64,000 nucleotides of DNA, from IMG/VR virus record IMGVR_UViG_3300045988_123906; one strand, 5' to 3'. Every line of letters begins with the position of its first letter. The first letter of the stretch is position 1. The translations under genes and the position numbers were made by a program. Below are positions 643-60,521 of this stretch, piece after piece. The notes below the pieces were generated by a model. That model was not told the origin of the DNA. It made no database searches and was given only the letters and a program-made list of their open reading frames with translations. The DNA is from a virus.

Positions 643-1038
643 TTAAGCTGTAGCAATCCGAGCCCAATTACCCCAACTATCATCCCCGCCATAGCGGTAA
701 TAAATATTCCCATTACAAAAAGCTATTTCGTAAGAATATCCTCCAGTATAGTCTTTCTAACCACACAGACCAAGTAAAAAACAATATTCGTTTCCACCAG
801 CAGACAAATTGACAGCTGAAGTTCTTTTTATTCCACGAAAAATCATTTTACCATGATAATCATCGTTATTTTTGTCCCCGTAATAATCAGACGGTGCTGT
901 ATTCGAATCTCTGTTATCTCCATCATCAACAATAAAATTATGAAAATGTTTTGATGGATTAAATTCAGATGGTTTATTCTGTACTTCATTCCATTCAGTG
1001 GTCATTTCGTTCCCGCTATTCATTTCTCCTAGCGCCAT
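643..1038 (-). CDS. small fibre-associated protein, 131 codons, in-frame TAG at 757..759
   Basis: SD AAGGAGG lies 8 nt before ATG 1038. The frame stays open past the TAG for 37 codons (KDYTGGYSYEIAF...WGNWARIATA) to TAA 643..645, which abuts the SD of the next gene. Confidence 0.6.
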
Positions 1039-1086: not shown

Positions 1087-2793
1087 TCATGCGGTGCGAT
1101 ACCACATATAAGCGACCAAGTATGGCGGCATAGAAGATGCTGAACTAGTGTTTGAAATTAAATTATATCCGGCAGAATTGCGAGTGTCTGTTGTATAATC
1201 ACTGCCAACACCTGTATTTGAAACCATCGCATTGGAATCACCTGTATTTGCACCTTCGACAGTGCCTGCGATACTAGTTCCAGAATATTTTAATCCACGT
1301 AAAACTTCATTATCTATGCCCATAAATCCACCATAAAACAAGTTATATCGCAAACCCCAATTATGTTCATGTGTCGCTTCGCCACCTGTCGCTCCAGCTG
1401 CATAGCTATCTCCAGCTGCTAAAATAAATCTATCTTTGATTCTTTCCTATGTTCCACCAAACAACTCAGCGGGGCTTGTCGGTTTTACACTTTGATAAAT
1501 ACTTCCAACAGGGTGGTCGAGCAGTTTCTGTTCTTCTTTGGCTACCTTGATTGCCGCTGCTATCTTATTATCAACTTGTGCCTTGGTATATCCCTCAACA
1601 ACAGTACCACTGCCGCTATCTGTTTGTCCGCCACCTTGCACGATATAATACTGAGCTGTAATCGCAGCCGTTGGAACTGATACAGCTCTCAGACGCACAT
1701 ATCCATCAAAGGTCTCTGGGTTTGCAAACTGGGCGTATGAAGCTACCTTTGCACTTGCCGGTGTCACGCTGATAGAAATAACATCCTTTGAGGTGATTCC
1801 ATCGATGTCGAGGTCAATATACTTTGAATATCGGTCCACTGTATCGTCAGTAAGCTAACTTGTAGTTGGAATAGTCAGTGTGTGGATATTGATCGTATTT
1901 GCCTTTACTTTCAGCTTCTCGTCGATCTCATTCTGCTGGTAGTATCGCTCATCATGGGTGTGACCATCATCACTTTTCTTTGAGAGCTTTACATTGATTT
2001 CGTCTTCCGTATAATAGCGGTCATCGTGATTATGTTCTGTATTTGCTTTCTTTGCCAGAGCATCGCCAACAGCTTTGGCATCAGCGGCGAAATTCTCTTT
2101 TGTCAGGGTCTTGTCCACCGCAACAGAATCCAGCTTCAACCTGTCCAGCTCAGTGCGTACATTGGTCAGCCCGGTATCAGCCGATTTTGCAATACTCAGC
2201 GCCTCAGAGATCCTTGTGCCGGTCACCTTTGCATCAGCAGCACGTCCAGATACAGTCAGTGTCGCATCCACCACAACCTGCGGCGTAGGCAGGGGATTGC
2301 CGCTATCATCAACCATGCCGCCAGTGATCGCATCAATCTCTTTATTCGTCAATGCAGCCAGCAGTTCATCCGGGTGCGGGGTATCAATCGTGATATCGCC
2401 CGTCTCTCCAGTTGTCACTGTGGTCACACCACCGCCAGCGATTTTGATTTTATCCTGCGCTGTACCGTTCAGGATTAGATTGATATTAACTTCGCCATTG
2501 ACTGCGTTTTTGTCGGCTTCCAGTGTGAATTTTGATGGGTTCAAAAGAATCCAGTCATCGCCACTATAAACATACAAGCTGTCTGGACGCAGGTAGTAAA
2601 TCTTATTAGACAAAGGAGCCAGCGGAAGCGAGCTTACGATCTCCAAGTCTTTGCTGATTTGAATTCGTCTTGTGCCGATATCTCGATAAGTGCTTCCAGT
2701 ATCAGTACATACGATCAGTTGGCCGTCAATCACAGGAGCTTGATCAAGCTGAGACTGTGCGACCTCGCGTAATGATAAATTTGCCATACTCAA
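1087..2793 (-). CDS. tail fibre protein, 568 codons, two in-frame TAG (1855..1857 and 1447..1449)
   Basis: Three same-frame ORFs are separated only by TAG. It has HxH-D[DE]RYY repeats (HNHDDRYY, HTHDERYY). The C-terminal PVGSIY..FGGT[TAG]ERIKDRF..PPYLVAYMWYRTA pattern is typical of Firmicutes phage fibre/baseplate C-termini. Ends in TGA. Confidence 0.7.
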
Positions 2794-12303: not shown

Positions 12304-14784
12304 TTATTGTTCATCTGCCGTAGTGGCAGTTAATTCGGGAAAATATTTATCAAACAAATTGTCCTGATAGAACGTATATTTGTTGTTTACGATATAAGTG
12401 TAATAAGGGTAATAGCGGCTCATAGAAAGCGACATTGTGCCTTCACCCAGATTCATAGAAATGCTCTTGATGATCCAATCCACGGGGGTCTTACCGCCCA
12501 GATATTTGGCAGCATACTGGATCTTTTCATTCACGTCGAGCCACGGAACTAGTCGCGTAGTCACACTCAGGCCGTCAGTTAGGCGGGCACGCTTCCATAG
12601 TTCGTATTGGCAAACTTCCATAGCCGCGTCATCCGTGGTGTAATTCTCGTAGTCTCCACCCGATAGAATCTCGGTTCTACGACCGATCTTTTCAATGGAT
12701 AACCGTGCATTGTACAGGTCATCAATATTGTTCGGGTCATTCACACAGATAAAAGCCATATTGTCGCAGTTATCTTCTGCCTTTTGAGCTTCGATCTCTT
12801 TGGTAGCCGGGATTTCGTCCACCAGTTTTGCCATAGCGTGGCTCTGCTGTTGGCCCAAGAAGTAAATGCGGCCAGTATTCGGATTCCACTGAAGAACATA
12901 ATACTTTGTAGCCTTAATACATCCGGGGTCTTGAATGACATCTGAACCATTGGCATCAGTCAAAGAACGATACAGCGTGCTGGTCTTTGTCTCAGAGCCA
13001 ACTTGTTCATTGCCGTCTTTATCCTTGTACTTCCATGTAAATGTCAGCACTACCGTCATTGCGCCGCTTAATACATTACCGTTCTTATCCGTCTTGGCAG
13101 CTTCAACATTTGCAGGAGCCACAAAAGATACTTTCGTTTCACTTTTCCATGTTGATTCGGTTGCGTTCAATACAAGGTTGATTGTTTTATTTGTTCCAGA
13201 CCATCCTTTTACAGTGGCAGCTCCATCCGCTTCAATCGTTGCACCAAACACTTCAACGCAGTTTCGGACAGCGGCATAATCCACTGTGGCCGACTCGCCA
13301 TCGTTGGTCACAAGCTTCTCGAATACTTCTGGGTCAAGCACAGGCGGGTCATCAAATCCACTGGGAATTTCTTTGCATACAAACACATCATCGTCAAAAC
13401 GCATCTCAAACGGATAATACAGGTCACGCAATTCTGAGAGAATATCCCAAACAGTCGAGCCAGTATCATAATCCAAGTCGTGTGGAACAGTGCGGCTCCA
13501 ATAGTCGATAGAATATTTCTTAAACTCCGTCTCGTCTCTCAGTACCGCCCAGATAGCATCACCGATACGAGTGCCTTTCTCTATGCGATGTGTGCCACCA
13601 ACCAGCTGTCCACCCAAGTCTCCGTTGATACGAGAAACTAAGTCAACACAGCTTGCCTGCACAGTGTTTTCTGTTGCGCTATATGTAAAGCCATTGGATG
13701 TAAATGTATAGCACCCTTCGTTGTACCAATAGATTTTTACACCATCAACATAAGAACTGTCAGCTGAATTGGAATAGCTAAGGAACAGGTCGTTATACAG
13801 CTCATTCAGCGCAGTCTTTGTGTCAATCACTTCTGCCTGAATGTCGTGCATGGAATGTCCTACAAACACACTGGTTTTTCCGTAGGTCTCCCTTAATTCG
13901 TCTTCGCTCTAACCGGCAATGGCAGAAACATCCACCTTACCAAGCGTAACTCCGTTCAGAACCATACCTTCAACAGCAGCAATCATTCCATGGACATGCA
14001 TTTTGTTACCATACACGAAACTATCGATGCCTGATTTGTCTACCTCAAGGATATTGGCAGGGGAGAGACCGCCGCTCATTGACTTCGCTTTTGTTGCCAC
14101 AGCATCCAGATAAGCCCAGATATCATCCTCCACAAGCGGTACAAGTCCGTCTTTGGTCTGCAGCATCGGTGTAAATGCGATATAAGGTCCATCTTGACAA
14201 ATTGGGTCATCACTTCCCAAAACTGTAGAGTAATCACCAAGTTTGGTGTACCATTCTTCTGCTTCAGCTGGGTCATCCGGTGGCGTGCCGTCATTGATCT
14301 GGTCAAAGAACGTATGATACTTTGAGATATTGGCTCGTGTCCACACCAGCACATCTCGATTCAGATTGTCGATATTGCCGTATTTTGCATAGCCTCTATT
14401 TGTGATGTCCTGAATCAAATCATCATAATTCGTCGTAGCGAGCTGATAATCCGCATTTTCCCTGATCATCTCGTCAATACTCTTTGAAGCACTGATTTTC
14501 GACATTCCTCTTCCTGACAGACCAATGAATACACGCACATTTTTACTGATCCAATCCTCTTCCGTCAGGTTAGAAATGCCGCTCTTCTTACCCAGATACA
14601 GGGTCACATTAAAGGTTCGCCGCACGTCAGATTCTGAGTCGATAGAAATAGATCCATCAATCACAAGACCTTCCAAACTATCAATTGTAATAAAATCTTT
14701 GTTCAGCATATCAATGCGGCAGTAAATATTAGACGAATGATTGTTCAATAGCGCCAGGTCTGCGTCAGTCGGAAGATATGTCAT
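12304..14784 (-). CDS. baseplate/tail structural protein, 826 codons, in-frame TAG at 13909..13911
   Basis: ORFs 13909..14784 and 12304..13869 are in the same frame with an open linker. Homology to a TMP segment runs across the TAG. Has an SD at 14784 and ends in TAA. Confidence 0.65.
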
Positions 14785-16553: not shown

Positions 16554-17770
16554 GTTATCACCTCCGAATTATCCTTCGATATATAGCAAAGCTCACCATT
16601 GGTATTCACAGCCAGATTCAATGCGGCCAGAAAATTGTCAACAGTGATTTCTGAAATCGTTTTATTGATATCTGATACGTTCGTTTTCAGGGTCGAGATG
16701 TTGGTATTTGCAGCCGAAATCTTGCGTGTCATATCTTGATAGTGATTGGATTCAGCCGTTTTTGCGTAATCAAGGTCTGTCCTTAACGAAGTAATATCAG
16801 AAGCATTTTTCTCAATGTTGCTTTTATTGTCGTATACTTGTTTCTTTGTGGCGGTATAATCTTTGTTTGTGAAACCACCAATATTATTATTAAAGCCATT
16901 CATCGAGCGCCACAGACTAGCTACATCGTCGGCTTCTTTTGTCTCAAGAGCACTTACACGCTCAACCGCTGCGTTTGCAGTTGTGTCATCCGTATACTTT
17001 GTTGCAACAGCCCAGTCGCTAAATGTCTATTTTTCGGTTTCACCTCTTGCAGTAATACAGATATACAATGCACCACCGACACCGCCATAAATCCATAGAT
17101 CATTCACATCGTATGGAGCAGTCGGTGTGTCAGTAAAAACACGGACTTTTTCTGTCGCAAGATCTCGTGCGGATGTTGACATCGACAGTGCATTGATAAC
17201 ACCGGCATCAACAATTTCCATCCAGAAATACTGCTGTTTATCCTGGTCATATACCCAACGATAGCAAATGCCAGTCCTTTTATCATAGTAGATGTCGTTG
17301 ACGTGCGCTTGTTTCTCTTCATCTGTCTTCCAATCTGAAGCAGGATAGTTGTATGTATGCGGATGACCATTTCTGTACCAAGTATTAATGGTATTTTTCA
17401 GCTGATCCTGAACAGTATCTTCTGTCTGCTGGGATTTGTCTTTCATCGACTCAAACTCGGCGTTCAAGCTATCAACACCGGTCACCAGAGATTTCACTGT
17501 CAAAATCTCAACGCTGGTATTACTCTCCGATACGATCAGGTTACGGAAGTTGCCCTGCAATGCAGTCACAACAACCTTCTGGCCCACAATGTAGTCGTGA
17601 TTTGTTACAATGCCGTACTCGCCACCGAATACAGCGATTTTATAGTGCTGGTCTTCTTTTTCTGTAATCACTCCATAGGCGGACACGTCAAATTTTGCGT
17701 TCTTTACGGCGTGTTCGGCGGCAGAAGTCACCACCTCGGCCAGCACATCAGTTACTGATTTATCTGCCAT
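16550..17770 (-). CDS. tail-associated structural protein, 406 codons, in-frame TAG at 17027..17029
   Basis: ATG 17770 follows TAGGAGGAA. ORFs 17027..17788 and 16550..16903 are in the same frame and the 41-codon linker is open. Contains the motif NDIYYDKRTGICYRW..W. Confidence 0.6.
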
Positions 17771-20800: not shown

Positions 20801-23800
20801 TGCTTGTCAGACAGGTTCTGTCCGGCTTCACGAACTGCATTTTCATCTGCTTTCTATACGAAACCTTGACCTCTGCCGCCATATACATGAACAGTCTTAT
20901 TGGCCTTTGCTCGCTCGTACTCGTCCTGAAGTTTTGCCAGTTCGATTGCTCGCTCCTGTGCATCATTTTCTTCATTGAGCGCGTCAATCCGCTTGTCAAT
21001 AACATCGATCCAGGCTTCACCTTGAATCTTGAGGTCATTAGATTTCTTATCATTGGCGTCATCTACAAGACCGAGCAGGGAAGAGAAAAGATCTTTGATG
21101 CTGGAAATCGTCGATTTGAGCTCGTCCAGGACATCTTTAACACCACCAAAATGAAGCTTCATTCGTGTCGCAGAATTCCCTGACGCTTTTTCCATGTCTT
21201 TAGTGGAGTTTGTAACGTCATCATAAGCGGCATTCATTTCGTTTGCAGCGTCAGTTACAGCTCCTTGAACATCGTGCATGCTCTTCCCAGCATACTTACT
21301 TGTCTCCCCAAGATCTTTTTTAATGTTTTCGGCTGATTCACCACCTATAGCTCGAACGTCAGCAGCGACAAGTTCTGCACCGTTTACGACTTGCCCTTGC
21401 ACTGCTGCAATCATGCCATGGACGTTAATTTCATCACCAGCAACATTTTCAAATAGGCCATTTGCGTCAACCTTTAAAATGTTTTCAGCTGTAGCGCCAC
21501 CCTCAAGTTGGGCAGCTTTTTCTACAACATCATTTACATAATTATAGATTTCATCAGCCGTGAGAGGAACAACACCATCTTCTGTCTGAAGCATAGGAGT
21601 GTAGGCAATTTCCTTTTCGCCTTGTCCCTCACCATCGCCAGTCCAGAATGAACTACTTTCTCCAAGAACAGTAGAGTATTCGCCAAGATGTACGTCTTCT
21701 TGTTCAGCAAATTCATGATACTTAGCGAGATTTTCTTCGTTCCATTCGATAACACCACGATGGAAGTTGTCAACATTACCATATTTCTGAACGTCGCTAT
21801 ATTGATTTACAACATCGTTATAATGTTCTTTTGCTTTGGCGTATTTATCGGCGGCCTCAGTAATTTTATCAATATTGTCCAGTCCAGTCACGTCTTTCAA
21901 CATCTGGCTAAACATATCACCCTGGGCTGTACCTTTGTACTGAACAGATGCCGCAGCAAGCTCTGCTGTATACAAATCCTGATATGCATCGGTGTTGAAT
22001 TTTAGCTGATTACCTACTTGTTCAATACATTTCAAATATTGAGGATCAAGATAGAGCAGTTTTTCATACGAATCATAGCTTAGTTGCCCATACGTATTGT
22101 ACTCATCGATGATCTCATTGATTGTCTCAAACCCAGATTTGAATTTATCTGTTTTATTTTTAATATCATCAAGCTGAGTGTTAAGCCCCTTGAGATAATC
22201 AGTGATTTTAATAACACCAGAACTTAATGCGTCAATCGATTTCTGAAGCAAATTCTGAATGGCGACATTCTTGGTTGCAGCTTTCTCATTTTCAAGAAGT
22301 GCAATTGTAGCTTCCTTCAGAGATTCTTCGTTTATCTGGAGATTACCGGATTCATCATAGAGGATGTCTTTAAGCTCACTATGTTCCTGAATCAGATCAA
22401 TAACAGATTCTACGTTATCGCTAGTCAATGCACCAGCAGGGTTATCAGTATTCAGAATGTCGTGAATGGTTCCGAATGCAGATTTCAAGCCAGAAGTTTT
22501 CTCCTGTGCCTTATCAAGAGAGGCACCAACTCCTTCGATTGCGTCACGCAATTCATTCAGAGAGATAGTACCATCTTTAGCATTTTCATCAAGATATTTT
22601 AGAATCTGGGTATACTGAGAGACTTTAGCCTTTGTCTTATCCGAAGAATCGGCGGTTGCAGCAGCTGCTTCTAATTCTTTTTGGATCAGATTGCGATATT
22701 CTGTTGCATTGATCGTTAGCTGATTGCCTTCTTTTTTCAGGAATGCAGTATATTTTGATTCGAGTCCCATCAGAGACTTCATTGTATTCAGGCTGACAGA
22801 ACCCTTCTTGTTATACTCATCCATAGCAGAGGATAGAGTAGACCATGCATCAATAGCAGAAGTTGCCTGTTTGGTGGACTTGGAAGTATCGTTTTTGCCC
22901 CAAATTTTACTTGGGTCCTGTTTGCCTAAGTTGTCTAACAACCCTGATAGTGTATGATAATTCTTCCTGTAAATCTCACCGGCTCGTTTTACTTTGTCGT
23001 AACCAGCCCAACCGTCACTATCTTTCGCTTGTTGTGCAGATTTTTCAGTTGCAGCATCAATAGCAGTATCGGCATCAGAAATAACAGCAGTAACGTCGCC
23101 TAACAAAGCTTCTGCTTTGGCAAGAGTGTTAGTATCTTTGATATTATTTAACGTATCTGCAAGTATGGATGCTTTCGCCAATTGGATATTTGCTTGAGTT
23201 AAAGATTGAGCGGTTTTTGTATTGATTTTCAGTTTGCCATTCTTCAAATCAAGCATATTCAGATACTGCGGCTCAAGTTGACACAGAGACTGTAGTGTAT
23301 CCATCGTGACGTAACCTGTCTTATTGTACTCCTTAACGGCCTGAGCACAAGATTGATAGGCAGACTGCATGTTATCAAGCGCTGTCATAGCATCAGACAA
23401 AGATTTTACCTTGCTTGAATCACGAACGGCAACAAGTCCTACTGTCTCAAGCGCAGAAACAAACTGATCAAAGGTTACGCCTGCTGCTTTTGCTGCATCC
23501 TCGAGAACTTTAATTGCAGCGGCTTGTTCTTTTGTTTGATTAGCCGGAACAAAAGAAAGCTCTCGAATGTCATCTCCGGTTTCAAGACCAGAAGTTTTGA
23601 GAGCGTTAACAGCGCCAACATATGCATTGCCCTTAGAATCAGAATTGCCACGGCGATCCATAGATGTTTTGACACGCTGCATCTTTTCAAGTAAGACATC
23701 GTATGCTGTTGTGCTTATTTTAACATCATCATTTGCATCTGCAAGAGCATTAGTAGCATCTGTGATTGTGTTCGTGCCAGCAATATATTCATCTTTGTAC

Positions 23801-26794: not shown

Positions 26795-27319
26795 TTACGT
26801 CGTAAGTAGTGTCAATATAAACTATGTCGAAAGAAGCTGATCTTCTATGTTGTCCATAATATTTTTAACATCAGTCTCATGGTCAAAAGCATCGCCGTAT
26901 TTGATTTCTTCTTGTGATGGAAGCTGAAAACTGAATACAGTATGTCCATTGTAATTACTTATTGAAAAATCTGTACGAGAAAGAATGTTCATCCCAATAA
27001 TAGCATCATAATCACGGTTACTATCTTTTAAAACCGTAAATTCTTCATTAGTAAAAGAAACATCAGAAGACAAAATTAAATTCGCAACAACAGAACTTCT
27101 TATTGCTTCATCTTCACCGAATTTGACCTGATAAATGTTTCCTGTTTCAGGAAAATCTAATCCATCAACAACCCACTGCATAACATAGCTCGCAACAGCT
27201 CCAGTATCAACAAGGGCTCGTACCTTTGCTGCACGATTATTGTGTTCGAGTACAGCAGGTATTATTATTGATTTTTGTACTTCATCATATGTGATAGTAT
27301 ATGTTTTTACTTCCGCCAT
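26795..27319 (-). CDS. retropepsin-like aspartic protease (165 aa to TAG 26822, 174 codons if the TAG is read through to TAA 26795)
   Basis: ALVDTGAVAS (DTG active-site motif) plus IIGMNILS, as in clan AA retropepsin-like proteases. Confidence 0.6.
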
Positions 27320-28561: not shown

Positions 28562-29876
28562 CAAGCTGTTACTTTTATGACCATATCGCTATGGCGGGTA
28601 GTCATTTCTGGCTACCTCTCACGTTTCATTTTGTTATATCGTGAGTTCGGACTGGATCTTCACCCTGGAAAGAATAACAGGGGATAGCTGAACCCTATAT
28701 GTTACCATATAAGGTATTACAGTCTCTACGCATTTTTAATCAGTAAAGTCATGCCCAAGCAGTTAGGATGCTAAGCATAATTTTGGTTGTAATTCGTCTT
28801 TCGATAATTCACTGTAAGATAAAACAATATTATCATTTAGAGTTATTTTATCGTTGTCAAGATGATAGTTGAATGAATTGTAATTTTGAAGCCGTCCGTT
28901 TTCATTTATAAATTTCTGTATTAAAGCTTCACACAATTTCGGATTTTTGTTTATGTCGGATTCCCATAGATATAAAATAGGAATATTATATGTTTCCGTT
29001 ATATATGTATGCTTCGCTTTGTCTCTTCGAATAGCTTCTCGTTGCTGCTGATATTTTATGATTGGGTATCGTATTGGACTACAATGCCAATAATCGCCCA
29101 TGACTTCAATAAATAAATTGCAGTCTACCAAATAATTATCAACGGCATAATATTCTACATTGTATTCATTTGTATATTTAATGCCCATGTTATCAAGCAT
29201 TTTATTTAATATAAGTTGAGGTTTGCTTTGAGTTTGAGATATTATACCACTTTCAATTATTCTTGCGGCGCGTTTTCGGGATTCTTCTTTCCATTCAGGT
29301 TGCTGGCTCCAAACTTTTGCATACCATTCTCTTCTACATTTTGATGAACAGAAATGATTGTTTTGGTTTTTTATTTTATATCCATTTTCAAAATATTTCT
29401 CGCCACACCAATCACAAGAAATCAAATCTCCTTCAAATTTTGGATTATTGAAACCGACTCTTGTCTTTTGCTATTCGTTTTGACACTTATCAGAACAAAA
29501 TCGTTGAGTTGATTTTTTTGATAAATACATATCTTTTCCACAAATTTCGCATGGGCGATGCTCGTAAGCAGTCTCATGATGCCATGCAATAGAACATTCA
29601 TTTGAACAGAAATGATGCTTTGTATTATTATAATGATATGCATTCATATATTTCAATTGTCCGCACCATTCACAGTTATACCATACACCGGTTTTACTTC
29701 CTTTTGCTGGAATAACAATCACCTCCATAAAAATAAAAACCACACAACTCCTAACTGTGCGGTTCGATATAACTTTACTGATTAAATCTTTGCTCGGTCT
29801 TGTCCACTTCTGGATTTTGACCGATATAGCTAATTTTTCTAGCTACCTATTACTAGGCAGCGTCGGCATATACTTT
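28562..29876 (-). mobile_element. group I intron 1 (1315 nt) with an endonuclease ORF looped out
   Basis: P1 pairs exon GUCGGU (29877..29882) with GCCGAC (29862..29867), with a G-U wobble at the splice site. P2 is GCUGCCUA-GUAA-UAGGUAGC. A 14-bp helix (29773..29786 with 28735..28748) brackets the ORF. An R-like element GCGUAGAGACUG lies at 28720..28731. The intron ends in G at 28562. Confidence 0.75.
28763..29743 (-). CDS. intron-encoded homing-endonuclease-like protein, 326 codons, in-frame TAG at 29471..29473
   Basis: Three CxxCG...FCSxxC zinc-finger repeats followed by a Vsr/DUF559-like nuclease motif (FIEVMGDYWHC). ORFs 29471..29743 and 28763..29425 are in the same frame across the TAG. 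Confidence 0.65.
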
Positions 29877-38092: not shown

Positions 38093-38589
38093 CAGCGAGC
38101 CCTCCTAAAAGAGCCAACCTGATAAACAAGTATTCGTCCGTAATAGCATTGCGCTGGCTTATAGATGCTGCTTCCAGCCTATTCAAGCGGTCCAATTCCA
38201 AATTCTTTGTTTCCATTCAGAAGCTTATCAATATCACTGGCCAAAATATCAATGCGTGTCCCAGCCTGTCCTTTCCGATGATATGTCTGCATAAGGTTTT
38301 TACTGCAATATGCAAATACGTAAATGGTCATCATCGTAATAGAATCACCGCTGGTTTGTTCTGGCACGACCTCAACACACAAAAACGTTTTTGAGTTTTC
38401 CTGCGTATCTGGAACATACTCATACTTAAACACGCATCCACCTTCACCCGACCCATTCTTACCAAGCAGAAGAGTTTCGGGATCGTCGATATTATCTGTA
38501 TTGCCCAATAGGACATCAAGGACATTTTCGTCATTGATCAACTTGGAAACGACCCGATTTTTGAATACCCCGATCTCATCGAGATTCAT
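38092..38589 (-). CDS. neck/tail-completion-like protein, 165 codons, in-frame TAG at 38179..38181
   Basis: Read-through adds AGSSIYKPAQCYYGRILVYQVGSFRRAR and ends in an ATGA overlap with the next start. The YYGR.L.Y.V pattern resembles the C-termini of neck proteins. Confidence 0.55.
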
Positions 38590-45635: not shown

Positions 45636-47392
45636 TACAGTCCTCCCTTCTTTAATACAGGCGCTCTAAAGTTAAACGTGAGCGAAGTTGGCTTTTTATT
45701 CTTCTTCTCCATGCTTCGTTCAACTTGCTGCGCAATGTAATAGTTGTAAGACAGGGAAGAGTAGCGGTCTTTACGGCAGCCGGATTTCTCCTTGACTTTG
45801 ATAACGTTATTCACGGTTTCGTAGCCCAGATTTACAAGCTCGTTTACAGCAAGTCCGGTATTGATATATGGCATCTGTAGTGCGGCTCGTTCAGTAGGCG
45901 ACATTTTATCATAGCCTTTATAGATTTTGCGCAACTGGTCTTCACATCCGTACTCACTCTGAAGCAGATGGATACGTCCTTGCTGGAAACCGCTGCGTAA
46001 TCCAATGGCTACATCGCTATTAAACTGGGAGCTGCCCATAATAGCCTAGATGACCTTGCGAGCATTTTTGTCAGCACAGCGAGATGCGATTTCTTGATTG
46101 TTACAGCAGCTAATCGCAGGATACGTTTCGCCTGTTTCTGGGTCATACATATCGCGCATTAACAGGTCGACCAGAGGTAATCCAACGCCTCTACAGTCAA
46201 CCCCGATATAATCACAGTTGAAGTAATCGAAATACCGTCGCAGTTTTAGTGCCTGGTCTTGCGCACTCATACCCTCAACGTTCTCTGAATAGACAAAGTT
46301 GCTGGTATAGCGCCCTGATTTATTCGGCAGCATACAGTTCAAGAATATACTGGTTGCGTCGTTGTCGTTTTTGCGACTGCTCATCAATGCAATATCGGCA
46401 GTAAGAATTCGCACTTCACCATTTTTCTTTTTCGGCACATCCATAGCAGCTTGATTAAGTAAAAGATTCGGTGCGTAGAACGCCTTTTCAATGACGCGCG
46501 TTTTGTTGATGTCATCAAATTGAAATAAGCCGCCTTCGGTAGCACCAAGCCACTTACATTCGTTCTCCATTGCAAATGTCAAATCAGAAAAACTGGATTC
46601 ACTCATTTCATCTTCTACAGCCTCCTTCAACAGCAAGCCGCTCTTGATTGACATTTGATACGGGAAGGATACGCAGAAATATTTTTTATTAAAGTCGATC
46701 ATATTTACGAAGTAGTCCTGACATTTTTCATAGCTCCAATGGTTTTGGAACCAAGCAGAACTTAGATAGAATTCTTTATTTCGCTCTGCAAGATGTGCAT
46801 ATTGTGGCTTGTCCAAATATCCAGGATGACGAACAATATTCAGGAACTTCTTCAAAATCAAATCAATAACATCTTTAGATAGTAATCTATATTCATCACA
46901 GATAAGAAGTGTAGCTCGACTACCACGACTGCTATCTGTTGCAGTGACAACTTTGATATAGCTACCGTTCCTAAATATAATTTCTGCCTTTTGATTATTG
47001 ATATCGACCTTTTTGATTTCAGATCGTAGAAGGGGACTATTGGGGTAGATCTCCTTCATTATCTTTTCATCCAAAATACTGATAGATTGGCTTCTTACCT
47101 TACAGGCAATACAAACCTTGGAACCAGGCCATAGAATACATGTAATCACACAGAAAACTGCGGTTAGAAATGACTTACCAAGGCCACGAGCAGCAATGAA
47201 GCAGAAGCCGGTACATCTTACCATCAAAAACAATAGTAGCTCTTGGAATGGCTTCAATGTCAGGTTTAAATAGTCTTTTGCAAACCGCTGAGGATTCGCC
47301 CTATAAAATGACGCCCTCAGGGCAACTGCGTTCATTATTTTTTCTGATTTTGTATTCGCTACTTCCTTATCTGTTAATTTCTCTTTACTCAT
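45635..47392 (-). CDS. terL: terminase large subunit, 585 codons, in-frame TAG at 46046..46048
   Basis: Walker A ARGLGKS and Walker B LLICDEY. ORFs 46046..47392 and 45635..46039 are in the same frame, separated by TAG plus 2 codons. The downstream piece supplies the nuclease-side C-terminus (KDRYSSLSYNYY). Confidence 0.85.
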
Positions 47393-48387
47393 GCGGAACC
47401 ACCGCCTTCGCCAATACCGAAAATAGTTTCGCGGAGGCTAGTATCTGTGGCATCGTCCTCATTTGTCTCTGGTTTATGAGCAGTATATCGTTCAAACTCT
47501 TCGTCAAATTCGTCTTGATATGGATTCTTTAAGTTGAACATCTTAAGCAACGTGCCCAACACCCATACTCTGAAATACTTACCGATACCATCAACGTCCT
47601 GCCACTCTGGCGACGGCTCTGGAATCGGTTCTTCCTCTTCCTATTTCTGAATCAGCGTGCCAAAAGTATTCGTCTCAGCCAGTGCGTTATCGTTCGTCTG
47701 GTTCGGCTTGATTTGGGCAGAACCCATTAGGTTTTGTAGGTTATCGTTTGCCTCTTTGATCTTTTTGGTATCACCAGTGGCATCAGCCTTATCGCAATTA
47801 AGTTCTGCCTTTGCAATGCGTTTGAACAGAATTTCTTGTGCGGCCGTCTTACATTCATGTCTAGTGATAAGATTTTGATAGTGCTCATCAAGGAATAAAT
47901 AATCTTTTTCATCCAGACCAGTACCCCAGAATTTTCTCATCTTCAGAGTGACCTTTGTCCCCTTTGTATCACCGGCAGCCAAAGCGTCTTTTTTCTTCTG
48001 GTCGATCACATCGTCATAAGATTTATCTGCATACTGACGTATATTAAGCCGTCCCATATAGGTGTTAATTTTTAAAGCAGATGCCACAGAATGTTCTGAA
48101 GCGTCAAGCAATTTATCATTTACATAGGTATCGAACATCATAGCCAGACGGTCAATCGCTTCATCTTCATCGTTATACTTCTTAACATAAAACTCAAACA
48201 TCTTCTCACGGCACTCATTGCACCACGGGAGGTATCCGTCGTTACCAATAAACCATTGACTCTTCGTTTTTGAGAAATTACCTTTGCGCACGTCATAGAT
48301 TTTTCCGCAACACATACATTTACCACCACTCCAAGAGGGCGGAACCTTGATACGAGGCGGTTTCTTATCTGCGGCAACTCTGGCCAT
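47389..48387 (-). CDS. terminase small subunit-like protein, 332 codons, in-frame TAG at 47641..47643
   Basis: SD GGTGGTGA before ATG 48387. Read-through adds 83 acidic codons and ends in an ATGA overlap with terL, which has no SD of its own. Confidence 0.55.
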
Positions 48388-48788: not shown

Positions 48789-49973
48789 TTAAATTACTAT
48801 CTTTGCTGGCTTCTCCAGCTTGACATCGTACAGACATTCTAGGCCGCTGTCATCGATTACAGCCACTGCCTGTTGCGGCACATCATTCTTGCGCAGTCCA
48901 ATTGCGTAGGAATCGCTGCCACAAACGCAGCCGCTCTCAATAACCTTCGCACCATGCACCGTTGTCATGCCGTTTGTGTGGCGGTGACCAAGGAACGCCA
49001 TGTCAATTGGCTGCTTCACCATCAGTGTCAGGTGCTCAACGACGTTAGCAGGGGAGTCTTTATCTCCATGTGCGTACATCACAAGACTATTCCTAGCTTT
49101 AAAGCCACCAAAGGTCGGATCGAGCTTCTCTGTTTTAATATCAATGCCAGCCAGATTTTGCAGCCGTGCCTTCATATAGAACGGGATCAGTGCCTCAAGT
49201 TCATCGCCTGCTACCTGATCCTCTTTGCTGGGGAATACTCGTGAATGATTGCCACTCACAGAATACACGTCAATATGCTGGCATACCTCGTACAGTGTAG
49301 CAACAAAATTACTTACCAGCTCTGCAGCCGTCATAACCTGCTCAATGCTGTTTTCATTGTTCTGCACGCGGGTATTAACATGGATATGCCCATTGATCAG
49401 GTCGCCCAACAGCAGCACATGAATCTTTTCGGCTGTATGTCGCGCTACGATATTGAACACCTGTGCAGCATAACTCTCAAGCCTAGCTTTCAAGATATCT
49501 TTGTTGAACTTATTCCACGCCGAATCAATACCCGCGCCAGCATGTAAATCAGACAAACACACAATCACATCGTGACCGCTGTCTTCGTATTGCACAACAT
49601 TCAGAAAGTTGTCAGGGTTATACGGAGCAACGTTCTTCAGAATCAATTCCTTAACGGATTCGGCACGGGCAACATCGCGATACACTTTGTTTGCTGCATT
49701 GCGTTCATCTTGTAATTTGATCTTTTCAATCTTCAGTCGCTGTAGTTCATCCTGGATTGTTTCTTCGTTGGCGTGATCAATAGCGTAGTCATAACCATCT
49801 TTCCACGACTTATAGGTCTTGCGGTATCTGCATTCGCCATAGTCTGAGCCGGTTGCTTCATTCAGCAGTTCTGCTGCCTGATTCTAAGTCAGCTTACGTT
49901 CGCTGCATGCCTCACCAATCCGCATCATATATTCATCAAAGGTCTCGCCGTCCGCTTTCTTAAATTCGTCCAT
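48789..49973 (-). CDS. metallophosphoesterase, 394 codons, in-frame TAG at 49884..49886
   Basis: Calcineurin-type motifs LSDLHAG, GDLINGH, GNHS and GHRH. SD GAGGTGG before ATG 49973. The N-terminal 96 codons are open across the TAG. Confidence 0.7.
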
Positions 49974-50255: not shown

Positions 50256-51068
50256 TCATTTCGGTCGTTTGTTTCGATTCGCATTCTTTTTCGCTAGACG
50301 TGCCTGTTCTTTCTTTGCCGCACATCCTTTGCAATATCTGCTGGCATTTGGCTTTTCTGAGTGATACTGTTCGCCACACACGATGCAATAACATTCCTTC
50401 GGGTCAAACAACTCTCGCACTATGGCGCTTAGATTCAGCCGATTGTTTTCAAGCATCACATTGAACGTGTACGCAATCGTGTCATTCTTATCAAGGGCAA
50501 AATTTGGGTACTGGTATAAGCATCCAATGTCGTCAGTGCCGGTTCTGTTCAGCAGGTGATAGTCGTCAGAGATCTCTTTCATGCCCCGCACTGTATTATA
50601 GCCGTCGTCCTAGTTCTTCCCAGCGCAATACATGATCTCTGTCTGCTCTTCAAAGCAGCCACCAAAACGTTTCATCTTAAACTCAGTATCCAAGGCAAAG
50701 GTATCACTTCCATACAGTCGGCAGAAGAATATTACCCCAAACAGAACACGTAATTGTGCGTAGTTGATATGATACTTTTGGCGCGCCTCTGTGATATAGT
50801 CCAGATCTTTCTGATAAAGCACAACTTGATGTACGTCAAGTATGGGCGCGTTATTTTTACGGCCTCTGCTGAACGTCTGGATCAAGTGGCTACGGTCATA
50901 GCTGACAGACTCAGGATTTTTCATCCGCTCATAATAAATGGTGGCGCATTCAATAGGGGAGAGGGAGGTTCGCTTCAGCAGATTTCGCAGCATCAGATTT
51001 GACTCGTGATAGTCCTGCCAATGATCGAGCAGCATATTCTCATTACAGTAGAAAGTTGTATATGCCAT
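50256..51068 (-). CDS. hypothetical protein, 270 codons, in-frame TAG at 50610..50612, C-terminal CxxC..CxxC and basic tail
   Basis: ORFs 50610..51068 and 50256..50591 are in the same frame with an open 6-codon linker. Confidence 0.55.
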
Positions 51069-51608: not shown

Positions 51609-54152
51609 TTATTTCACCATCGCTTCATATATTTTCGGTTCAGCCAGACTATATCGCTGGCCAAGATATTCGTACTCGCCGTTCGGATCGTGAACTGGCA
51701 GCTGAACAGGAACCGGCTTGATATTTTCGACCACACCAGCGCCGGCCATGTGCCACAAGAACTTCTTGAATTTATTGGGATACTTCTCATAGCAAAGCAC
51801 TACAAGAATATTCGCCAGCTCTCTCACATCAGGACACACCAGCTTGCACTTGTTACGGTAGACATTGTAGATCGCCTGCCAGTTCGTTTCATATGTCTTG
51901 GCCTCTTCTTTGGTAATACGCGACTCAATGTCCTTATGATATAATTGCCAGTTGCGGCATTTCTTTTCGAACTCAAGTTGTTCCTTACGGCATTTGTTGA
52001 AGTCCAAGAAAATGGCCTCGATCTCGTCAAAGACTGCCTGGTCATAGGAGACCTCTGGGTCGTACATGATATGCCAATCAAAGCTGCCTGCGGGCTCTTT
52101 GCGCCACCGTACACCGCGCTCCCAACGCTCCAGACTCATGCAAAGCAGGTTCATATTGCTATGTGCCTTGCTGAGATTATGTAAACGTGCGTAGTAAGGA
52201 CCTGCATACTTCATAAAGTAGGGTAGGGGACGACCATAAGCTGCTACATTACGCGGGATCGGATACAGAACACCGGTTTTAGCATAATCGATAGCTTTTC
52301 CGTTGCAGATGCTCAAAAGCGAAATATTATCGTGATAAAGCTTCTTGGTCTTTTCCATGGTCGGAACCTTATTATGGTATGCAGTTGCGTAATTTGAAAT
52401 CTCGCCAATAGAACTCTTCAATCCGCGAATGGTGCAGGCGACTTTGTTCTTCACAATATCACATTCTGCTAACGCAGTGATCTTATCTTCAACATCGAGT
52501 GTAATAGGGATATTATCAGGAACACCACTCATCATCAGTGGATTATCGATGATTAGAACCAGGTCGCCGTCAAAATCAGAACCATTGAGTCTGGAAGCCA
52601 CGATGGATTTGATATTTACCATAGCAACATTCTGAAGATGGCTGCAGTATTTGCGGGTGTATTCGTTGTCTACAGCCTTGGCCTTTACATGCTCGGCAAC
52701 AGAAATATGGGGATTGCGCTCAATTAAGCGGTTTCCCTCCATCACACCACGACGATCAAAGCTGTAGAATTCACCGTCTTCAAGGCAGCCAGTCACAGGA
52801 AGGCCACCAATATGCTGTAACAGTGCAATAAGGTCAGGGGCCCAGAACTTAAAAGTAGCATTCATCCAAAGCCGACCGCACTTCATCTCATTGCGATATT
52901 TATCAAGCAGCGAGTGAATATAATCTTTGATTGCCGGCTCTTTTACCATCACTGGGTTGCGCAGGGCAGCAGCCATGTAATGATTCATTGGGTCGTTGTT
53001 CTCAGCAAGTAAACCAAGGAAGCAGTATGTATAAATCGGGTCGCCTTTGACAATATTCTGATACCAGGTAATGCTGTCATCAGCTAGATGCTTAAAAGAC
53101 TCATTGTCGAGCTGTAGATCTTGAATAACCTGATAGTTACTACGGGTGGAAAGCGGTTCTTGTTCAAGCGTAAAGTTCCATTTAGCCACACCAAGGCAGT
53201 TATCGTACTTCTTGAAAAGTTCCCAGTATCTCTCCCAGTCAGAATAGGTACCAGTTTTCTTGAAATATTTGAGACCCTTGTACATTGAAGCAGTAATAAT
53301 AATCATTGGTTCGCTGCCAGGTGTTACATCATATTCCATGCCCCAGATGTCCTTGATTTTTGTAACGCCGTTCTCTTCAAAAAAACGCTCGTAATCAATC
53401 TCGTGTAAACAACCCTTGATATATGGAGCACGCAGAATCAAACTGTTCATCCGTTCAGAAGTGCCGATACGCTTTTCAAATTCGCGCATGATACTTGGGT
53501 GGCAGATTCCAGCACCATCAAATGCGTTGATATCAATGTCGACTGTTTTTGTGGCGATATCTTTCTGAGTCCAAGTACGTTCTTTACCTGTTTTGCGGTC
53601 ATTAAACGTCACAGTCTTGTCTACCAGATACTCGATCCACTGATTTTTGATCGTTGTCATATAGTCTGGAACAACAATCATTTTGGGGTACCAGTTCTCC
53701 AGGCAGTGGCAGCTGCTCAGCATCAAACCACGATAAGCATAATACTTACTCAGGACGGTTGGTGTTTCAGAAAAATCTAGTTCCATGCTTACACGGCGGT
53801 CGAGTTCAGGGTAGATATGTCGCTCAACAAAACTTAACATGCTCTGACGGACCATACTTGCACTACGTTCACAGAACAGATATTTTTGGCCATTAAATTT
53901 GAATCCATGCTCTACTAAATGATCGATAGCATCAGGGTGGTTCTGGCCGCCTGTTGCATCAACAAAGATAATAAAGCGCTGGAATTTATTCTAATCATCG
54001 GAAATGAGCCGAATCTGTCTAAACAGCATATCGTCACCCTGCAAGACCTTATACTGCTCCATCTCTTCTGGTGTCAGTTTGAAATTATAGTTATGAGAAA
54101 CGATATAATTCAAGTTAAATTTTAGTACGCTATATAATGGTGGACTAAACAA
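51609..54152 (-). CDS. YonO-like single-subunit RNA polymerase (two-barrel family), 847 codons, in-frame TAG at 53991..53993
   Basis: ERNPHISVAEH...RLNGSDFDGDLV matches the RNAP beta-prime NADFDGD metal-binding loop context. GAGGAG SD and a TTG start at 54152. The N-terminal 99 codons are open across the TAG. Confidence 0.65.
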
Positions 54153-56209: not shown

Positions 56210-56670
56210 ACCAAGCTGTCACACACGCATTCATCCCGCTGCACTTCTTTAGGCGCAGTTGGCGGTGTAAACTCAACCTCGCTCGGATCGTATGTCATCA
56301 AAGAACAGGCATCGATTCGCACATTCGGGAAGCACATGAACTTAAAGCATCGGTCAATATCATCAACAACAAGTGGCTTATCCTCTAAGTGCAATCCACG
56401 ATAATTATCGGGAGGACAAGTAGTTGTTATCACGTGAATACTGTATTCTCCGCGAGCTCTGCTTTGTAAATCCACTATAAGGCATTGATGATCAACCCTA
56501 TACCCCTAATATTGAATATCAAGGTTCCTTGCGATTTCCTTGATATAGTCCTGTGCACATAATATAGCCGTCCCGCCCATCGGCACCAAGATGTTACAGT
56601 TGTTCTTAACAGCGTATTCGCAGATCGCATATGTACGTCCACCGCCTCGTGGCGCTAATATTCTTTCCAT
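56206..56670 (-). CDS. CxC-tail family member e, 154 codons, in-frame TAG at 56506..56508 (ends ECVCDSLV)
   Basis: AAGGAGGG before ATG 56670. The frame is open across the TAG into ORF 56206..56475. Confidence 0.55.
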
Positions 56671-57772: not shown

Positions 57773-59164
57773 TTAGTCTAACAGGTCAGCCAGTTGTGCT
57801 GTCTCGCTGCGTTCCGTCTTGTTCAGGTAGACATATCCAAAGTGCGGGTTACCAGCCAGACACTGAATTGCTTTACGCATTCCGCTGTTATTTTCAAACA
57901 CGGCCTCGTCAGTCTGCTTCAGGTCACCATCAAGCCACAGCATAGATCCCTCACCAACACGGCCGAGTAACAGCTGTACATGCTCTTTGGTCAGATTCTC
58001 AGCCTCTGAAACCATAATAATTGCATTCTTGTAGTCGCGGCCACGAATAAATCCAAGGTGAGCTACTTCTACCTGCCCATTATTGATCCAGTATTCCAAA
58101 CCAGCCTTGCCGCCCAAGTGATCAGCCAGAGGGCCAGCAAAAGAAGCAGCGCCGAGCTTCTCTAGTAGGGTACCGGGTAGTGCGCCCAGCTCCTTGGTAT
58201 TCTTGACTTCGATGTTATTGCGAATCCAGATCAGCTTCTCAACTTTGTGCTTCTCGATCATATCAATAGCAGAGGACACCATAAGCATTGTCTTGCCGCT
58301 GCCGAATGTTCCAGCCAGCATTTTAACGGTAATATCGTCGTTCTGCAGCATATCAAATGCGAGCTTCTGTTGATCATTGAGTGGTTTTACGTCGCCAGTG
58401 AAGCGATTACTGATCTTTTTGTATTTGAGTGGTACATATTTCTTGCCATTCCATCGTAGCCAGCCTACCGCATTACCTGCCGGCATATCATCGTCTACTG
58501 TGTCTGGATCACGAACAATCAGATAGCCATTCACTGGAGTGTCAAACAGATTCTGATATGTATAGCCTTCATCGTGGGTCTGATATGCCATCGCCATGGC
58601 TTCCTCGCCGCCTTCATCAAGAGTGACTTCGGTCTAGCCAGTGTAGTTATTGTTGGCGCTTACTGCTGCATCGGGATAGGTGAATTCGATCGGCAGGTAA
58701 AGAATGCCGCTGGCAATATTGGCGCAACTTAGGTCGCTGGTAACGAACTTGAAAGAATCAATGTTGGCCTGGATCTGTCGCTGTGCTTCCGGGAGCCCGG
58801 CTTCAATCGCGTCATCCAGGTTGCGCTGCATCTCGTCCAGATACCAGCGGGCGGTTGCCATGATTGTCGCGTCGTTGTTGTCACTAATCGGTTTGCCATC
58901 CAGAATATAGAACAGGGAAGACATTGGGACTGCCACTACCATAAAGGTGTTGTCGTCGTGATGCTCGGCCAGCAGGCGGGTTACAGTACGGGCCTTATAG
59001 CGGATCTCTTCGCTCTTCTTGCCGCTTGTTTTGATCTCTTCCAGCTCATGCAGTGTCATATCGGCAATCAGAAACGGCTCTGTTGCACCAGAGGCTGTTG
59101 CACTGGCAGGTTCGAAAGCGGCGGCTCCCAAATCAAGAAGCGCGGAGGTGTCATAAAACTTCAT
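57773..59164 (-). CDS. phoH: PhoH2-like PIN-PhoH ATPase, 463 codons, in-frame TAG at 58634..58636
   Basis: The N-terminus is PIN-like (FYDTSALLDL). The C-terminus is PhoH-like (Walker A GTFGSGKT, GALPG, FIRGRD, Walker B IIMVSEAEN). The two ORFs are in the same frame with an open 12-codon linker. Confidence 0.75.
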
Positions 59165-60435: not shown

Positions 60436-60465
60436 GGTAGTACCGGGGGAGACGTAACTACCACC
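60436..60465 (+). promoter_or_regulatory. conserved leader motif copy A (GGTAGTACCGGGGGAGACGTAACTACCACC)
   Basis: Shares CC-GGG-N-A-GACGT-AAC-TA-CC-AC with the copies at 62082 and 63168. The stem GGTAGT/ACTACC shows compensatory changes relative to copy C. Confidence 0.4.
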
Positions 60466-60521
60466 AACGGCAAAACGCCGTGTCCGATATACACCAACTG
60501 AGAAAACAAGAGGTAATAACT

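Follow-up and report, generated by a model that had tools for sequence, protein, structure and literature searches.

In-frame amber codons at conserved tryptophan positions in the late genes of an SPbeta-like gut phage lineage

INTRODUCTION

Which amino acid is inserted at the amber codons (TAG in DNA, UAG in mRNA) that interrupt the late genes of a common human gut phage? The question is raised by a 64,000-nucleotide stretch of viral DNA (IMG/VR record IMGVR_UViG_3300045988_123906), the whole of which is called the window below. In phages whose code differs from that of the host, only TAG-to-Gln and TGA-to-Trp reassignments have been reported (Borges et al., bioRxiv 10.1101/2021.08.26.457843), and a recoded TAG is treated as genetic code table 15 by Cook et al. 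and by annotation tools. A first-pass annotation of the window proposed that TAG is read here as tryptophan (Trp) rather than glutamine (Gln), in part because an amber codon falls in the Trp column of tandem zinc-finger repeats within an intron-encoded endonuclease. We therefore compared the window with its relatives, both at the TAG codons themselves and at the transfer RNA (tRNA) genes that might decode them. From these comparisons, we put the probability at about 0.8 that UAG has been captured as a second Trp codon in this SPbeta-like lineage.

RESULTS

TAG is a sense codon in the late genes

By our count over the translations of the window, there are 15 in-frame sense TAG codons, which are distributed over 14 late genes on the minus strand (Table 1); the figure of 17 genes given by the first-pass annotation was slightly high. 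Several further TAGs lie upstream of start codons, and those at 28589, 29843, and 29853 fall in non-coding parts of the endonuclease insertion described below. The reading frame stays open and conserved on both sides of each in-frame TAG, including those in the large terminase (TerL), the tail fibre, and the tape-measure-like protein. Public gene calls break TerL at the TAG at 46046 into pieces of 448 and 134 residues. Likewise, the TAG at 38179 would, as a stop, cut its protein from 165 to 136 residues, and public gene calls have one length or the other depending on the codon. Peptides that span the amber position (x) include ...PAELFGGT-x-ER in the fibre (1447), VI-x-AIMGSSQFNSDVAIGLR in TerL, and GTLIQK[x]EEEEPIPEPSPEWQDVDGIGK in the YonG-like protein.

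Late-gene terminators are TAA in 32 cases and TGA in 30, with TAG at one stop position only (26822). Thus, TAG has been purged as a terminator in the late genes and serves there as a sense codon at Trp positions. The TAG at 26822 is either a tolerated extension or a place where UAG still terminates part of the time.

Trp dominates the TAG columns of relatives

For each TAG site, the aligned codon and the aligned residue were both tabulated across relatives, comprising about 500 related loci, of which about 390 came from IMG/VR and others from ENA/Logan (individual loci are cited below by L numbers). Trp is the residue in 12 of the 15 columns, Tyr in two (53991 and 56506), and one column is variable (13909; S/A/D/W). 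Gln was found in none of the 15 in-frame TAG columns in this sample. The alternative codon in the Trp columns is always TGG, and CAG stands opposite only those TAGs that fall in another frame or precede a start codon (47438, 38105). In more distant, standard-code phages, the TerL column holds Y in SPbeta, H in a Staphylococcus phage, and F in a Clostridioides difficile phage, and the YonG-like column holds Y, W, and I, respectively. Alignment of homologues at the TAG columns had been set in advance as the comparison that could overturn a Trp assignment; no column is dominated by Gln, and the outcome favours Trp.

All sequence contexts quoted by the first-pass annotation (at 1447, 49884, 757, 20854, and 13909) were found in the translations. 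Its suggestion that FGGT[TAG]ERIKDRF at 1447 corresponds to a GGTW position agrees with relatives, which carry either Trp or TAG there. The sites at 49884, 757, and 20854, described earlier as Trp or aromatic contexts, are Trp columns with a single Asn at the first of them. The same annotation offered 13909 as a counterexample, because a paralogue (AIGGESAEN) has Glu. The quoted context is present, but this column is variable and uninformative and does not decide the matter. The column at 53991 is also variable, and TAC to TAG is a single step. Separately, a segment of about 150 residues in the 834-residue tail protein (12304-14805, minus strand) is paralogous to a segment of the 2446-residue tape-measure-like protein (17845-25182, minus strand); the duplication, with the motif …VHGMIAAV.G.V.NG…GKSMHD.Q…, includes the 13909 TAG.

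We also made the comparison in reverse, matching each in-frame TAG in the relatives' long open reading frames to the residue of the window at that position and restricting the test to real genes. The window has Trp at 44 of 64 informative sites (161 instances). The remaining sites hold Q (7 sites, 10 instances), Y (4), L, E, or I (2 each), and H, F, or A (1 each). In the late genes of the window, TGG represents 7.1% of all codons one step from TAG, and the binomial probability of 44/64 is about 1e-35. When only the two transition neighbours are considered, Trp accounts for 44 of 51 sites versus 34% expected (P ~3e-14). An apparent excess of TAG/CAG exchanges on the plus strand was rejected as a signal because it came from antisense frames with synonymous Leu CTA/CTG changes and was gone when the test was limited to real genes.

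An amber codon in a zinc finger and the insertion that carries it

One invariant Trp column lies in the endonuclease gene. In translation, its three fingers read FCSNECSIAW, FCSDKCQNE-TAG, and FCSSKCRREW, and the TAG at 29471-29473 lies in the aromatic column, as first proposed. This codon is TGG in all three relatives that carry the gene. A search of a collection of 5.8 billion proteins gave 841 homologues at E <= 1e-10, and among 43 that were aligned (49-95% identity) the column is W in 43/43, within the motif FCSxxCQxxWQ. This endonuclease is not of the HNH type. Pfam assigns DUF2116 and zf-FCS to the N-terminal part, and homologues carry precomputed PF03852 (Vsr) matches on the C-terminal domain as well as PF06467, so the protein combines zf-FCS/treble-clef fingers with a Vsr-like domain.

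Most relatives join the equivalent of window position ~29876/29878 straight to 28561, and the insertion is present only in L094, L116, and L123. Its flanks rejoin as one reading frame, and the Pfam PhageMin_Tail domain is split by it (residues 2-136 upstream and 126-201 downstream). The endonuclease does lie in a cleanly bounded, domain-splitting insertion. Although this arrangement fits a mobile intron, a group I or II Rfam model was matched neither at gathering nor at permissive thresholds within 28450-29950, and the element is best called intron-like.

Two other interruptions were seen in relatives. On an ENA contig (L508:2451-5654), the YonO-like RNA polymerase is split around a GIY-YIG open reading frame (531, GIY-YIG 201, and 201 residues), which has the appearance of another mobile-intron site for this lineage. 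In L043, L045, L047, L054, L060-L062, L064, L073, and L078, the N-terminal 448 residues of TerL span about 1600 nucleotides rather than 1344 (match 10001 to ~11600), and this insertion of about 255 nucleotides may be a small intron or an insert that keeps the frame.

A CUA tRNA of tRNA-Trp type in relatives

No tRNA gene was found in the window by ARAGORN or Rfam, and no CUA tRNA was found in the first 328 loci by ARAGORN together with a custom anticodon-loop/T-loop pattern. Relatives have two tRNA clusters, both beyond the window end and on the side toward which the early plus-strand genes face. Cluster 1, about 8-12 kb past the end, encodes Pro, a 92-nucleotide CAU tRNA, three Leu, and Gly tRNAs, and contains no suppressor in the relatives. 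Cluster 2 lies about 40 kb past the end, after a conserved gene for a 213-residue protein, and was reached by walking outward through nicotinamide adenine dinucleotide (NAD)-salvage genes by means of a metagenome scan, protein searches, and exact-protein look-ups.

A tRNA(CUA) gene is present in cluster 2 of 13 loci (L485-7, L495, L500, L516-21, L528, and L531), always directly after tRNA-Lys(UUU), in the order Thr ... Lys(UUU), tRNA(CUA), Ser(UGA), Glu(UUC) ... Gln(UUG). The same slot is occupied by tRNA-Trp(CCA) in L490, L496, and L497, and no retrieved stretch contained both. In the CUA tRNA (L516:12042-12118, for example), the discriminator is G73 and G1 pairs with U72; its D arm reads UAGCUUAA..AAAGC and its anticodon arm GCAGU-CUCUAAA-ACUGC. 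The corresponding features of the phage tRNA-Trp(CCA) (L496:5418-5493, for example) are G73, A1-U72, UAGCUUAA..AAAGU, and GCGGU-CUCCAAA-ACCGU. Accordingly, G73, a weak 1-72 pair, the D arm UAGYUUAA, and the anticodon arm GUCUC-U-AAAAC are Trp-type features kept in the CUA tRNA. Its identity to the phage tRNA-Trp is 73-74% (5' half 81%) versus 65% to the phage tRNA-Gln (5' half 53%). In the variant from a 2.54-Mb contig (L531; ERZ27273471 contig_729_polypolish), the anticodon stem is the same as that of tRNA-Trp(CCA), and the arm differs at position 35 only. Five CUA variants share a common cloverleaf with eight compensated pairs.

Other sources for this tRNA were considered. By global identity, one CUA variant is 70% identical both to tRNA-Trp and to the short tRNA-Leu(CAA), a possible one-step source of CUA, and the two are not separated by this measure. 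However, the CUA tRNA differs from tRNA-Leu(CAA) in its discriminator base (G73 versus A73) and in both the D and anticodon arms, and these differences settle the parentage in favour of Trp. Bacterial tRNA-Tyr has a long variable arm; the CUA tRNA lacks such an arm and keeps G73, and a tRNA-Tyr origin was likewise rejected. Judged by these features, the CUA tRNA of the relatives is tRNA-Trp-derived. The identity of the suppressor had been named earlier as a check between Trp and Gln, and its slot, discriminator base, and arms all point to Trp.

Two further candidates for the suppressor were discarded. One is a 69-nucleotide tRNA detected only by Rfam (L321:9247-9315), whose anticodon stem is 3 bp long and whose loop, GGCUGAA, lacks CUA. 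The same gene (49-51 bits) occurs at L305:10930-10998, L299:842-910, and L323:10034-10102, has a conserved place between Leu(UAA) and Gly(UCC), and is missed by ARAGORN. The other is a tRNA-like element (L393:5739-5810), located about 4 kb past the integrase gene, whose anticodon loop has 6 nucleotides. It belongs to a set of tRNA-like genes with AU-rich acceptors (also L389:6755-6826, L490:10823-10895, and L500:10831-10905) that have either a 6-nucleotide anticodon loop, with the ARAGORN labels 'SeC|Met', 'Stop|Ile', and 'Ile|Tyr', or an AUA anticodon; one of them opens cluster 2.

The tRNA regions hold several other features of interest. Long variable arms are found in bacterial Leu, Ser, and Tyr tRNAs, and cluster 1 contains a conserved 91-92-nucleotide tRNA that unusually pairs such an arm (type II) with the anticodon CAU, or UAU in some relatives, about 9 kb beyond position 64000 (L085:487-578, L293:8000-8091, and L313:920-1010); it could hint at a second decoding peculiarity involving AUA or AUG. 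Between the two clusters is a module encoding NAMPT, PRPP synthetase, NAD synthase, a nicotinamidase/isochorismatase, and a macro-domain protein, which probably serves as a counter-defence against NAD-depleting host systems. On one NCBI metagenome contig (L530:11078-11148, compared with L528/L531:11076-11152), the phage sequence ends at the tRNA-Lys immediately upstream of the CUA slot, where tRNA-Lys(CUU) is followed by the bacterial housekeeping genes for MnmA, RecD2, and AlaRS. This junction may mark integration into a tRNA-Lys gene, or the assembly may be chimeric; a genuine junction would mean that lysogeny parts the suppressor tRNA from the other genes of the cluster.

Indirect links between the CUA tRNA and TAG-rich genomes

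The CUA tRNA and TAG-bearing late genes were not found on one retrieved stretch, the two features being about 58 kb apart, and the public records for the TerL fragment do not overlap those for the tRNA-side proteins. Protein P0241 had no public record, and the contig that carries P0063 stops short of the tRNA. We therefore relied on chains of overlapping sequences. Over about 10 kb, the CUA loci L516-519 share 96.3-96.9% identity with L407, which is 98% identical to IMG/VR contig 141099, the closest relative of the window, with TAG at 7/7 scored sites. The CCA locus L490, by comparison, chains (85%, then 95%) to contig 104138, which has TGG at five of these sites, Tyr at one, one unscored, and no TAG. 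The 213-residue protein encoded next to the CUA tRNA belongs to the P0001 or P0063 type. Genes of this type also lie at the ends of loci with 99.5-100% identity, over 10-11 kb, to the TAG-rich contigs 029533_55, 129118, 145811, and 123751. CUA loci of the L485 type chain to contigs with two TAGs.

Extent and origin of the recoding

The late genes of the window contain 210 TGG codons and about 15 sense TAGs, which means that about 7% of Trp positions have changed from TGG to TAG. Recoded genes include those for packaging, head, and tail proteins, a YonO-like RNA polymerase, a PhoH-like protein, and the endonuclease in the insertion. At the sites of the window, the TAG count per genome runs from 0 in a clade with 80-88% TerL identity, where every site is TGG, to 5-12 in the closest clade, and 10 further ENA/Logan contigs with an identical TerL fragment have TAG at 4-7 of seven scored sites. 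On this evidence, TAG is the derived state, produced by repeated G-to-A transitions at Trp codons. The reassignment is apparently at an early, polymorphic stage.

No in-frame TAG was found in the early plus-strand genes or near the tRNA clusters, and gene calls at both clusters are intact. Two unrelated features of the early region were noted. One is a tandem array of about 10 paralogous proteins of about 90 residues each (L333:9206-15492; motif Y.PGD.V.VR.DL....Y.MRSG). The other is a match to RAGATH-5, a ribozyme-class RNA in Rfam, at the boundary of two early plus-strand open reading frames (window 61384-61436, plus strand; also L265:9142-9194), with 52.1 bits against a gathering threshold of 50.

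An SPbeta-like prophage of the human gut

Nearly all of the window from position 70 to about 59,800 is coded on the minus strand. Its TerL shares 39% identity with SPbeta YonF over 94% of the length and 84% with a human faecal phage fragment that lacks annotation. Near-identical public contigs carry the Pfam families YonG_N, YonD_N, YonB, YomW, YomV_2nd, YomU_Tube, and RdRP in SPbeta order. A YonO-type RNA polymerase gene is present in that arrangement, and the gene of relatives matches PF05183. TerL, the YonO polymerase, and the Yon/Yom structural genes are thus syntenic with those of SPbeta, a comparison that supports an SPbeta-like assignment and does not extend to the genus level. Relatives in IMG/VR are 135-150 kb in size and have an integrase gene about 8 kb beyond the window start. 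The window appears to be the late-gene half of a temperate, SPbeta-like phage of about 145 kb from gut Bacillota.

The phage occurs as a prophage, because near-identical copies are embedded in contigs of 200-400 kb and a relative lies inside the 2.54-Mb contig. A scan of genome contigs gave three distant matches only, all in metagenome-assembled genomes (Peptococcaceae, Lachnospiraceae, and Clostridium). The best relative is only 97.6% identical to the window, and therefore its exact genome is absent from the collections. Nonetheless, the 448-residue TerL fragment that ends at the TAG is recorded in 740 blocks of the collection and the gene adjoining the CUA tRNA in 431, and this is a very widespread human-gut prophage.

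Table 1. Positions of the features discussed, with the codons or residues found in relatives at each TAG column (window coordinates unless an L number is given)
Feature	Position	Strand	Relatives and remarks
TAG in small distal tail protein (LCG-TAG-KDYTGG)	757..759	-	W 26, TAG 4; codons TGG 6, TAG 4
TAG in Gp10_C C-terminal domain of tail fibre (LFGGT-TAG-ERI)	1447..1449	-	W 22, TAG 17; Pfam Gp10_C residues 425-565
Second tail-fibre TAG (PTTS-TAG-LTDD)	1855..1857	-	TAG in 29 relatives; W in 6 diverged relatives
TAG in 834-residue tail protein (AIAG-TAG-SEDEL)	13909..13911	-	TAG 71; diverged homologues/paralogues S 9, A 6, D 2, W 1
TAG in 441-residue tail protein (ETEK-TAG-TFSDW)	17027..17029	-	W 57, F 2, TAG 15
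TAG in 2446-residue tape-measure-like protein (GFV-TAG-KADENAV)	20854..20856	-	Codons TGG 97/100; residues W 113, TAG 3
TAG where relatives terminate	26822..26824	-	TAG 13, TGA 3, TAA 3; readthrough adds 9 residues to TAA at 26795
Mobile, intron-like insertion of ~1.3 kb, carries endonuclease and splits tape-measure-like gene	28562..29876	-	
Endonuclease gene: three zf-FCS/treble-clef fingers, then Vsr-like (PD-(D/E)XK) nuclease domain	28763..29743	-	
TAG in second FCS zinc finger of endonuclease (FCSDKCQNE-TAG-QK)	29471..29473	-	TGG in 3/3 insertion-bearing relatives; W in 43/43 homologues
TAG in YomW-like head-tail protein (GPLE-TAG-AGSS)	38179..38181	-	W 95, TAG 37
TAG in large terminase (KVI-TAG-AIMGSS)	46046..46048	-	TAG 42, TGG 37; residues W 37, Y 2
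TAG in YonG-like protein (LIQK-TAG-EEEEP)	47641..47643	-	W 30, Y 1, I 1, TAG 49
TAG in metallophosphatase (RKLT-TAG-NQAAELLN)	49884..49886	-	W 26, N 1, TAG 47; Pfam Metallophos_2
TAG in 271-residue protein (AGKN-TAG-DDGY)	50610..50612	-	W 26, TAG 47
TAG near N-terminus of YonO-like single-subunit RNA polymerase (ISDD-TAG-NKFQ)	53991..53993	-	Y 35, D 38, N 1, TAG 26
TAG in 154-residue protein (DIQY-TAG-GYRV)	56506..56508	-	Y 20 (codon TAT), TAG 27
TAG between PIN-like and PhoH-like parts of 463-residue protein (NNYTG-TAG-TEV)	58634..58636	-	W 16, TAG 15; Pfam PhoH, PIN_4
Early genes, divergently transcribed	60400..64000	+	Plus-strand open reading frames; 0 TAG, 9 TGG in 807 codons
NAD-salvage module	L333:17029-20757, L500:1-2227, L402:10001-12229		

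DISCUSSION

Evidence for and against Trp

The Trp assignment is supported because 12 of 15 sites alternate with TGG, the endonuclease column is invariant among homologues, the reverse comparison returns Trp at most informative sites, and the TerL and YonG-like columns tend to be aromatic in distant phages. The type of suppressor tRNA points the same way, so the original proposal of Trp rather than Gln has held up. Doubt remains because the identity of the inserted amino acid is an inference and the link to the tRNA rests on overlap chains.

Several observations weigh against this assignment. The window itself has no tRNA gene, and the association between the CUA tRNA and TAG use is indirect, running through chains of 85-100% overlaps. 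The amino acid carried by the CUA tRNA is deduced from conservation. The CUA and CCA tRNAs differ at about one quarter of positions, more than a simple, recent point mutation would produce. Two TAG columns hold Tyr and a third holds S/A/D, and Gln stands opposite seven reverse sites (10 instances). The TAG at stop position 26822 means that decoding may be leaky or dual. Finally, C35 is an identity element for tryptophanyl-tRNA synthetase (TrpRS), and the Escherichia coli su7 (supU) suppressor, a laboratory tRNA-Trp(CUA), is charged mainly with Gln by glutaminyl-tRNA synthetase (GlnRS). Many Bacillota lack GlnRS, and we speculate that a host without this enzyme might remove the Gln-charging route.

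These points bear most directly on the possibility that the CUA tRNA reads TAG but carries another amino acid or a mixture (Gln, Lys, or Tyr), with the Trp sites being tolerant or the decoding ambiguous or partial. Such an outcome would fit the role of C35, the mischarging of an anticodon-mutant tRNA-Trp in E. coli, the two Tyr columns, and the TAG at a stop position, and only about 7% of Trp sites being recoded is what one would expect of a codon that is still costly. However, the recoded sites include the invariant zinc-finger Trp and the fibre GGTW position, with TAG at high frequency there, TAG is rare outside Trp columns, and the tRNA keeps G73 without the long variable arm of tRNA-Tyr. 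We regard this explanation as unlikely. Ordinary genetic code 15, with TAG read as Gln as in crAss-like, Lak, and phAss-1 phages, is the sole TAG reassignment reported for phages and has been claimed for phAss-1, which was analysed alongside SPbeta-type phages. CAG to TAG is a single transition, and the Gln-aligned reverse sites and the Glu of the 13909 paralogue are in keeping with it. Nevertheless, Gln is in no TAG column of the window, whereas Trp dominates 12 of them and is invariant in some, Trp far exceeds expectation among the transition neighbours (44/51, P ~3e-14), and the CUA tRNA resembles neither the phage tRNA-Gln nor the Sup-CTA tRNA of phAss-1 (U1-A72 type acceptor). In our estimation, code 15 is very improbable here.

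The occurrence of the phage as a prophage in contigs of 200-400 kb and 2.5 Mb, together with its split public gene calls, might suggest nonsense mutations in decaying elements whose genes are not fully expressed, or else sequencing or assembly errors. We consider the TAGs not to be artefacts or decay because the same TAGs recur in many independent assemblies, which number in the hundreds. In addition, the frames are open and conserved after each TAG, TAG almost never replaces a codon other than TGG and is depleted at stop positions, and a suppressor tRNA that fits the codon is preserved through compensatory changes; there is hardly any room left for this account. Pyrrolysine receives next to no credence. 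ARAGORN labels the gene 'tRNA-Pyl', and some Bacillota encode pyrrolysine (PMC12626013), but the label reflects the CUA anticodon only. The tRNA has an ordinary tRNA-Trp-type cloverleaf with a normal T loop, pyl genes are absent from about 100 kb of gene tables, and the recoded columns are Trp.

A possible route and its consequences

With UAG taken as a Trp codon, single G-to-A transitions have converted TGG to TAG at late-gene Trp codons, and relatives carry a phage tRNA(CUA) with a Trp-type body in the cluster 2 slot, where relatives without recoding have tRNA-Trp(CCA). Host TrpRS would charge this tRNA with Trp, and no TrpRS or release-factor gene was present in the gene tables retrieved for relatives. 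The charged CUA tRNA would allow late mRNAs to be read through at UAG. Because the early genes lack TAG and the late genes contain it, late-protein synthesis would depend on expression of the suppressor. The tRNA could thereby impose a translational lock on the prophage's lytic programme, much as Borges et al. suggested for other phages with altered codes. A regulatory role has been proposed for the recoding of late and lysis genes (Borges et al., bioRxiv 10.1101/2021.08.26.457843). In the present lineage, a YonO-type RNA polymerase would be among the late gene products that need the suppressor for full translation; in SPbeta, the late genes are transcribed by this enzyme. With some reserve, we favour the broader view that this is the first natural UAG-to-Trp reassignment in a virus or in any bacterial system, caught at an early, polymorphic stage, with the suppressor tRNA as the translational key for the lytic programme.

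TAG-to-Trp would be a third phage code beside TAG-to-Gln and TGA-to-Trp, and, if it is true, the amino acid cannot be assumed from the identity of the recoded stop codon. There are also practical consequences for annotation. Pipelines that pick table 15 for a recoded TAG would place Gln at invariant Trp positions of a very common phage, and standard-code gene calls currently break its genes. The number of recoded sites grades from 0 to more than 12 across the lineage, with a CCA or a CUA tRNA in the same slot, so that the first stages of codon capture can be put to a direct test. A biochemical question also follows, namely how a tRNA-Trp with U35 still receives Trp, and why it does not receive Gln.

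Comparison with known recoding systems

We found no report of UAG- or TAG-to-Trp in phages in the searchable literature, where the phrase matches only a paper on organelles of holoparasitic plants, and the earlier statement that such a code is undescribed in phages stands to that extent. The closest phages are those that use TAG as Gln (crAss-like phages, Lak phages, and phAss-1 or 'Phassvirus'), which share with this lineage the gut habitat, TAGs in late or structural genes, a phage CUA tRNA (found here in relatives), and the lack of a dedicated aminoacyl-tRNA synthetase. They differ in the amino acid, which is Gln there and would be Trp here. phAss-1 and its relatives are large gut siphoviruses with predicted Clostridia hosts that have been compared with Spbetavirus (Babkin et al. 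2023, PMC10607447), and phAss-1 (OQ749652) has TAG in 41 open reading frames and Sup-CTA tRNAs called Gln by tRNAscan-SE (PMC10607447). In common with the present lineage, phAss-1 combines NAD-salvage genes with numerous tRNAs in a large siphovirus whose predicted host belongs to Clostridia, and its tRNA-Trp shares the GGUCUCCAAAACC arm with the tRNA described here. In contrast, its Sup-CTA, with a U1-A72 type acceptor, is unrelated to our CUA tRNA, and its recoding in 41 open reading frames may be set against about 7% of Trp codons here.

The TGA-to-Trp (code 4) phages Jade and Agate also turn a stop into Trp in late genes, by means of a tRNA-Trp-like suppressor in standard-code Bacillota or Bacteroidota. 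In those phages, the codon is TGA, the anticodon change is at position 34 (UCA) and is tolerated by TrpRS, and some add their own TrpRS and RF1. The present lineage uses TAG, its anticodon is altered at position 35, and the regions retrieved contain no TrpRS or release-factor gene. UAG is read as Trp in the plastid code of Balanophoraceae (NCBI table 32), to our knowledge the only natural case; there, a whole AT-rich, reduced plastid genome is recoded, rather than a virus in a standard-code host. E. coli su7 involves the same CCA-to-CUA change on a tRNA-Trp body, but it is a laboratory mutant charged mainly with Gln, whereas in the phage CUA tRNA the acceptor and T arm have diverged, and the Bacillota host may lack GlnRS.

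Bacillus phage SPbeta (Spbetavirus) shares TerL (39%), the Yon/Yom order, YonO, a large temperate genome, and a one-strand late operon with this lineage, but it uses the standard code, has Y at the TerL and YonG columns, and has no tRNA clusters. Thus, the kind of system seen here, phage stop-codon recoding with a suppressor tRNA, is known, and the amino acid assignment is what would be new.

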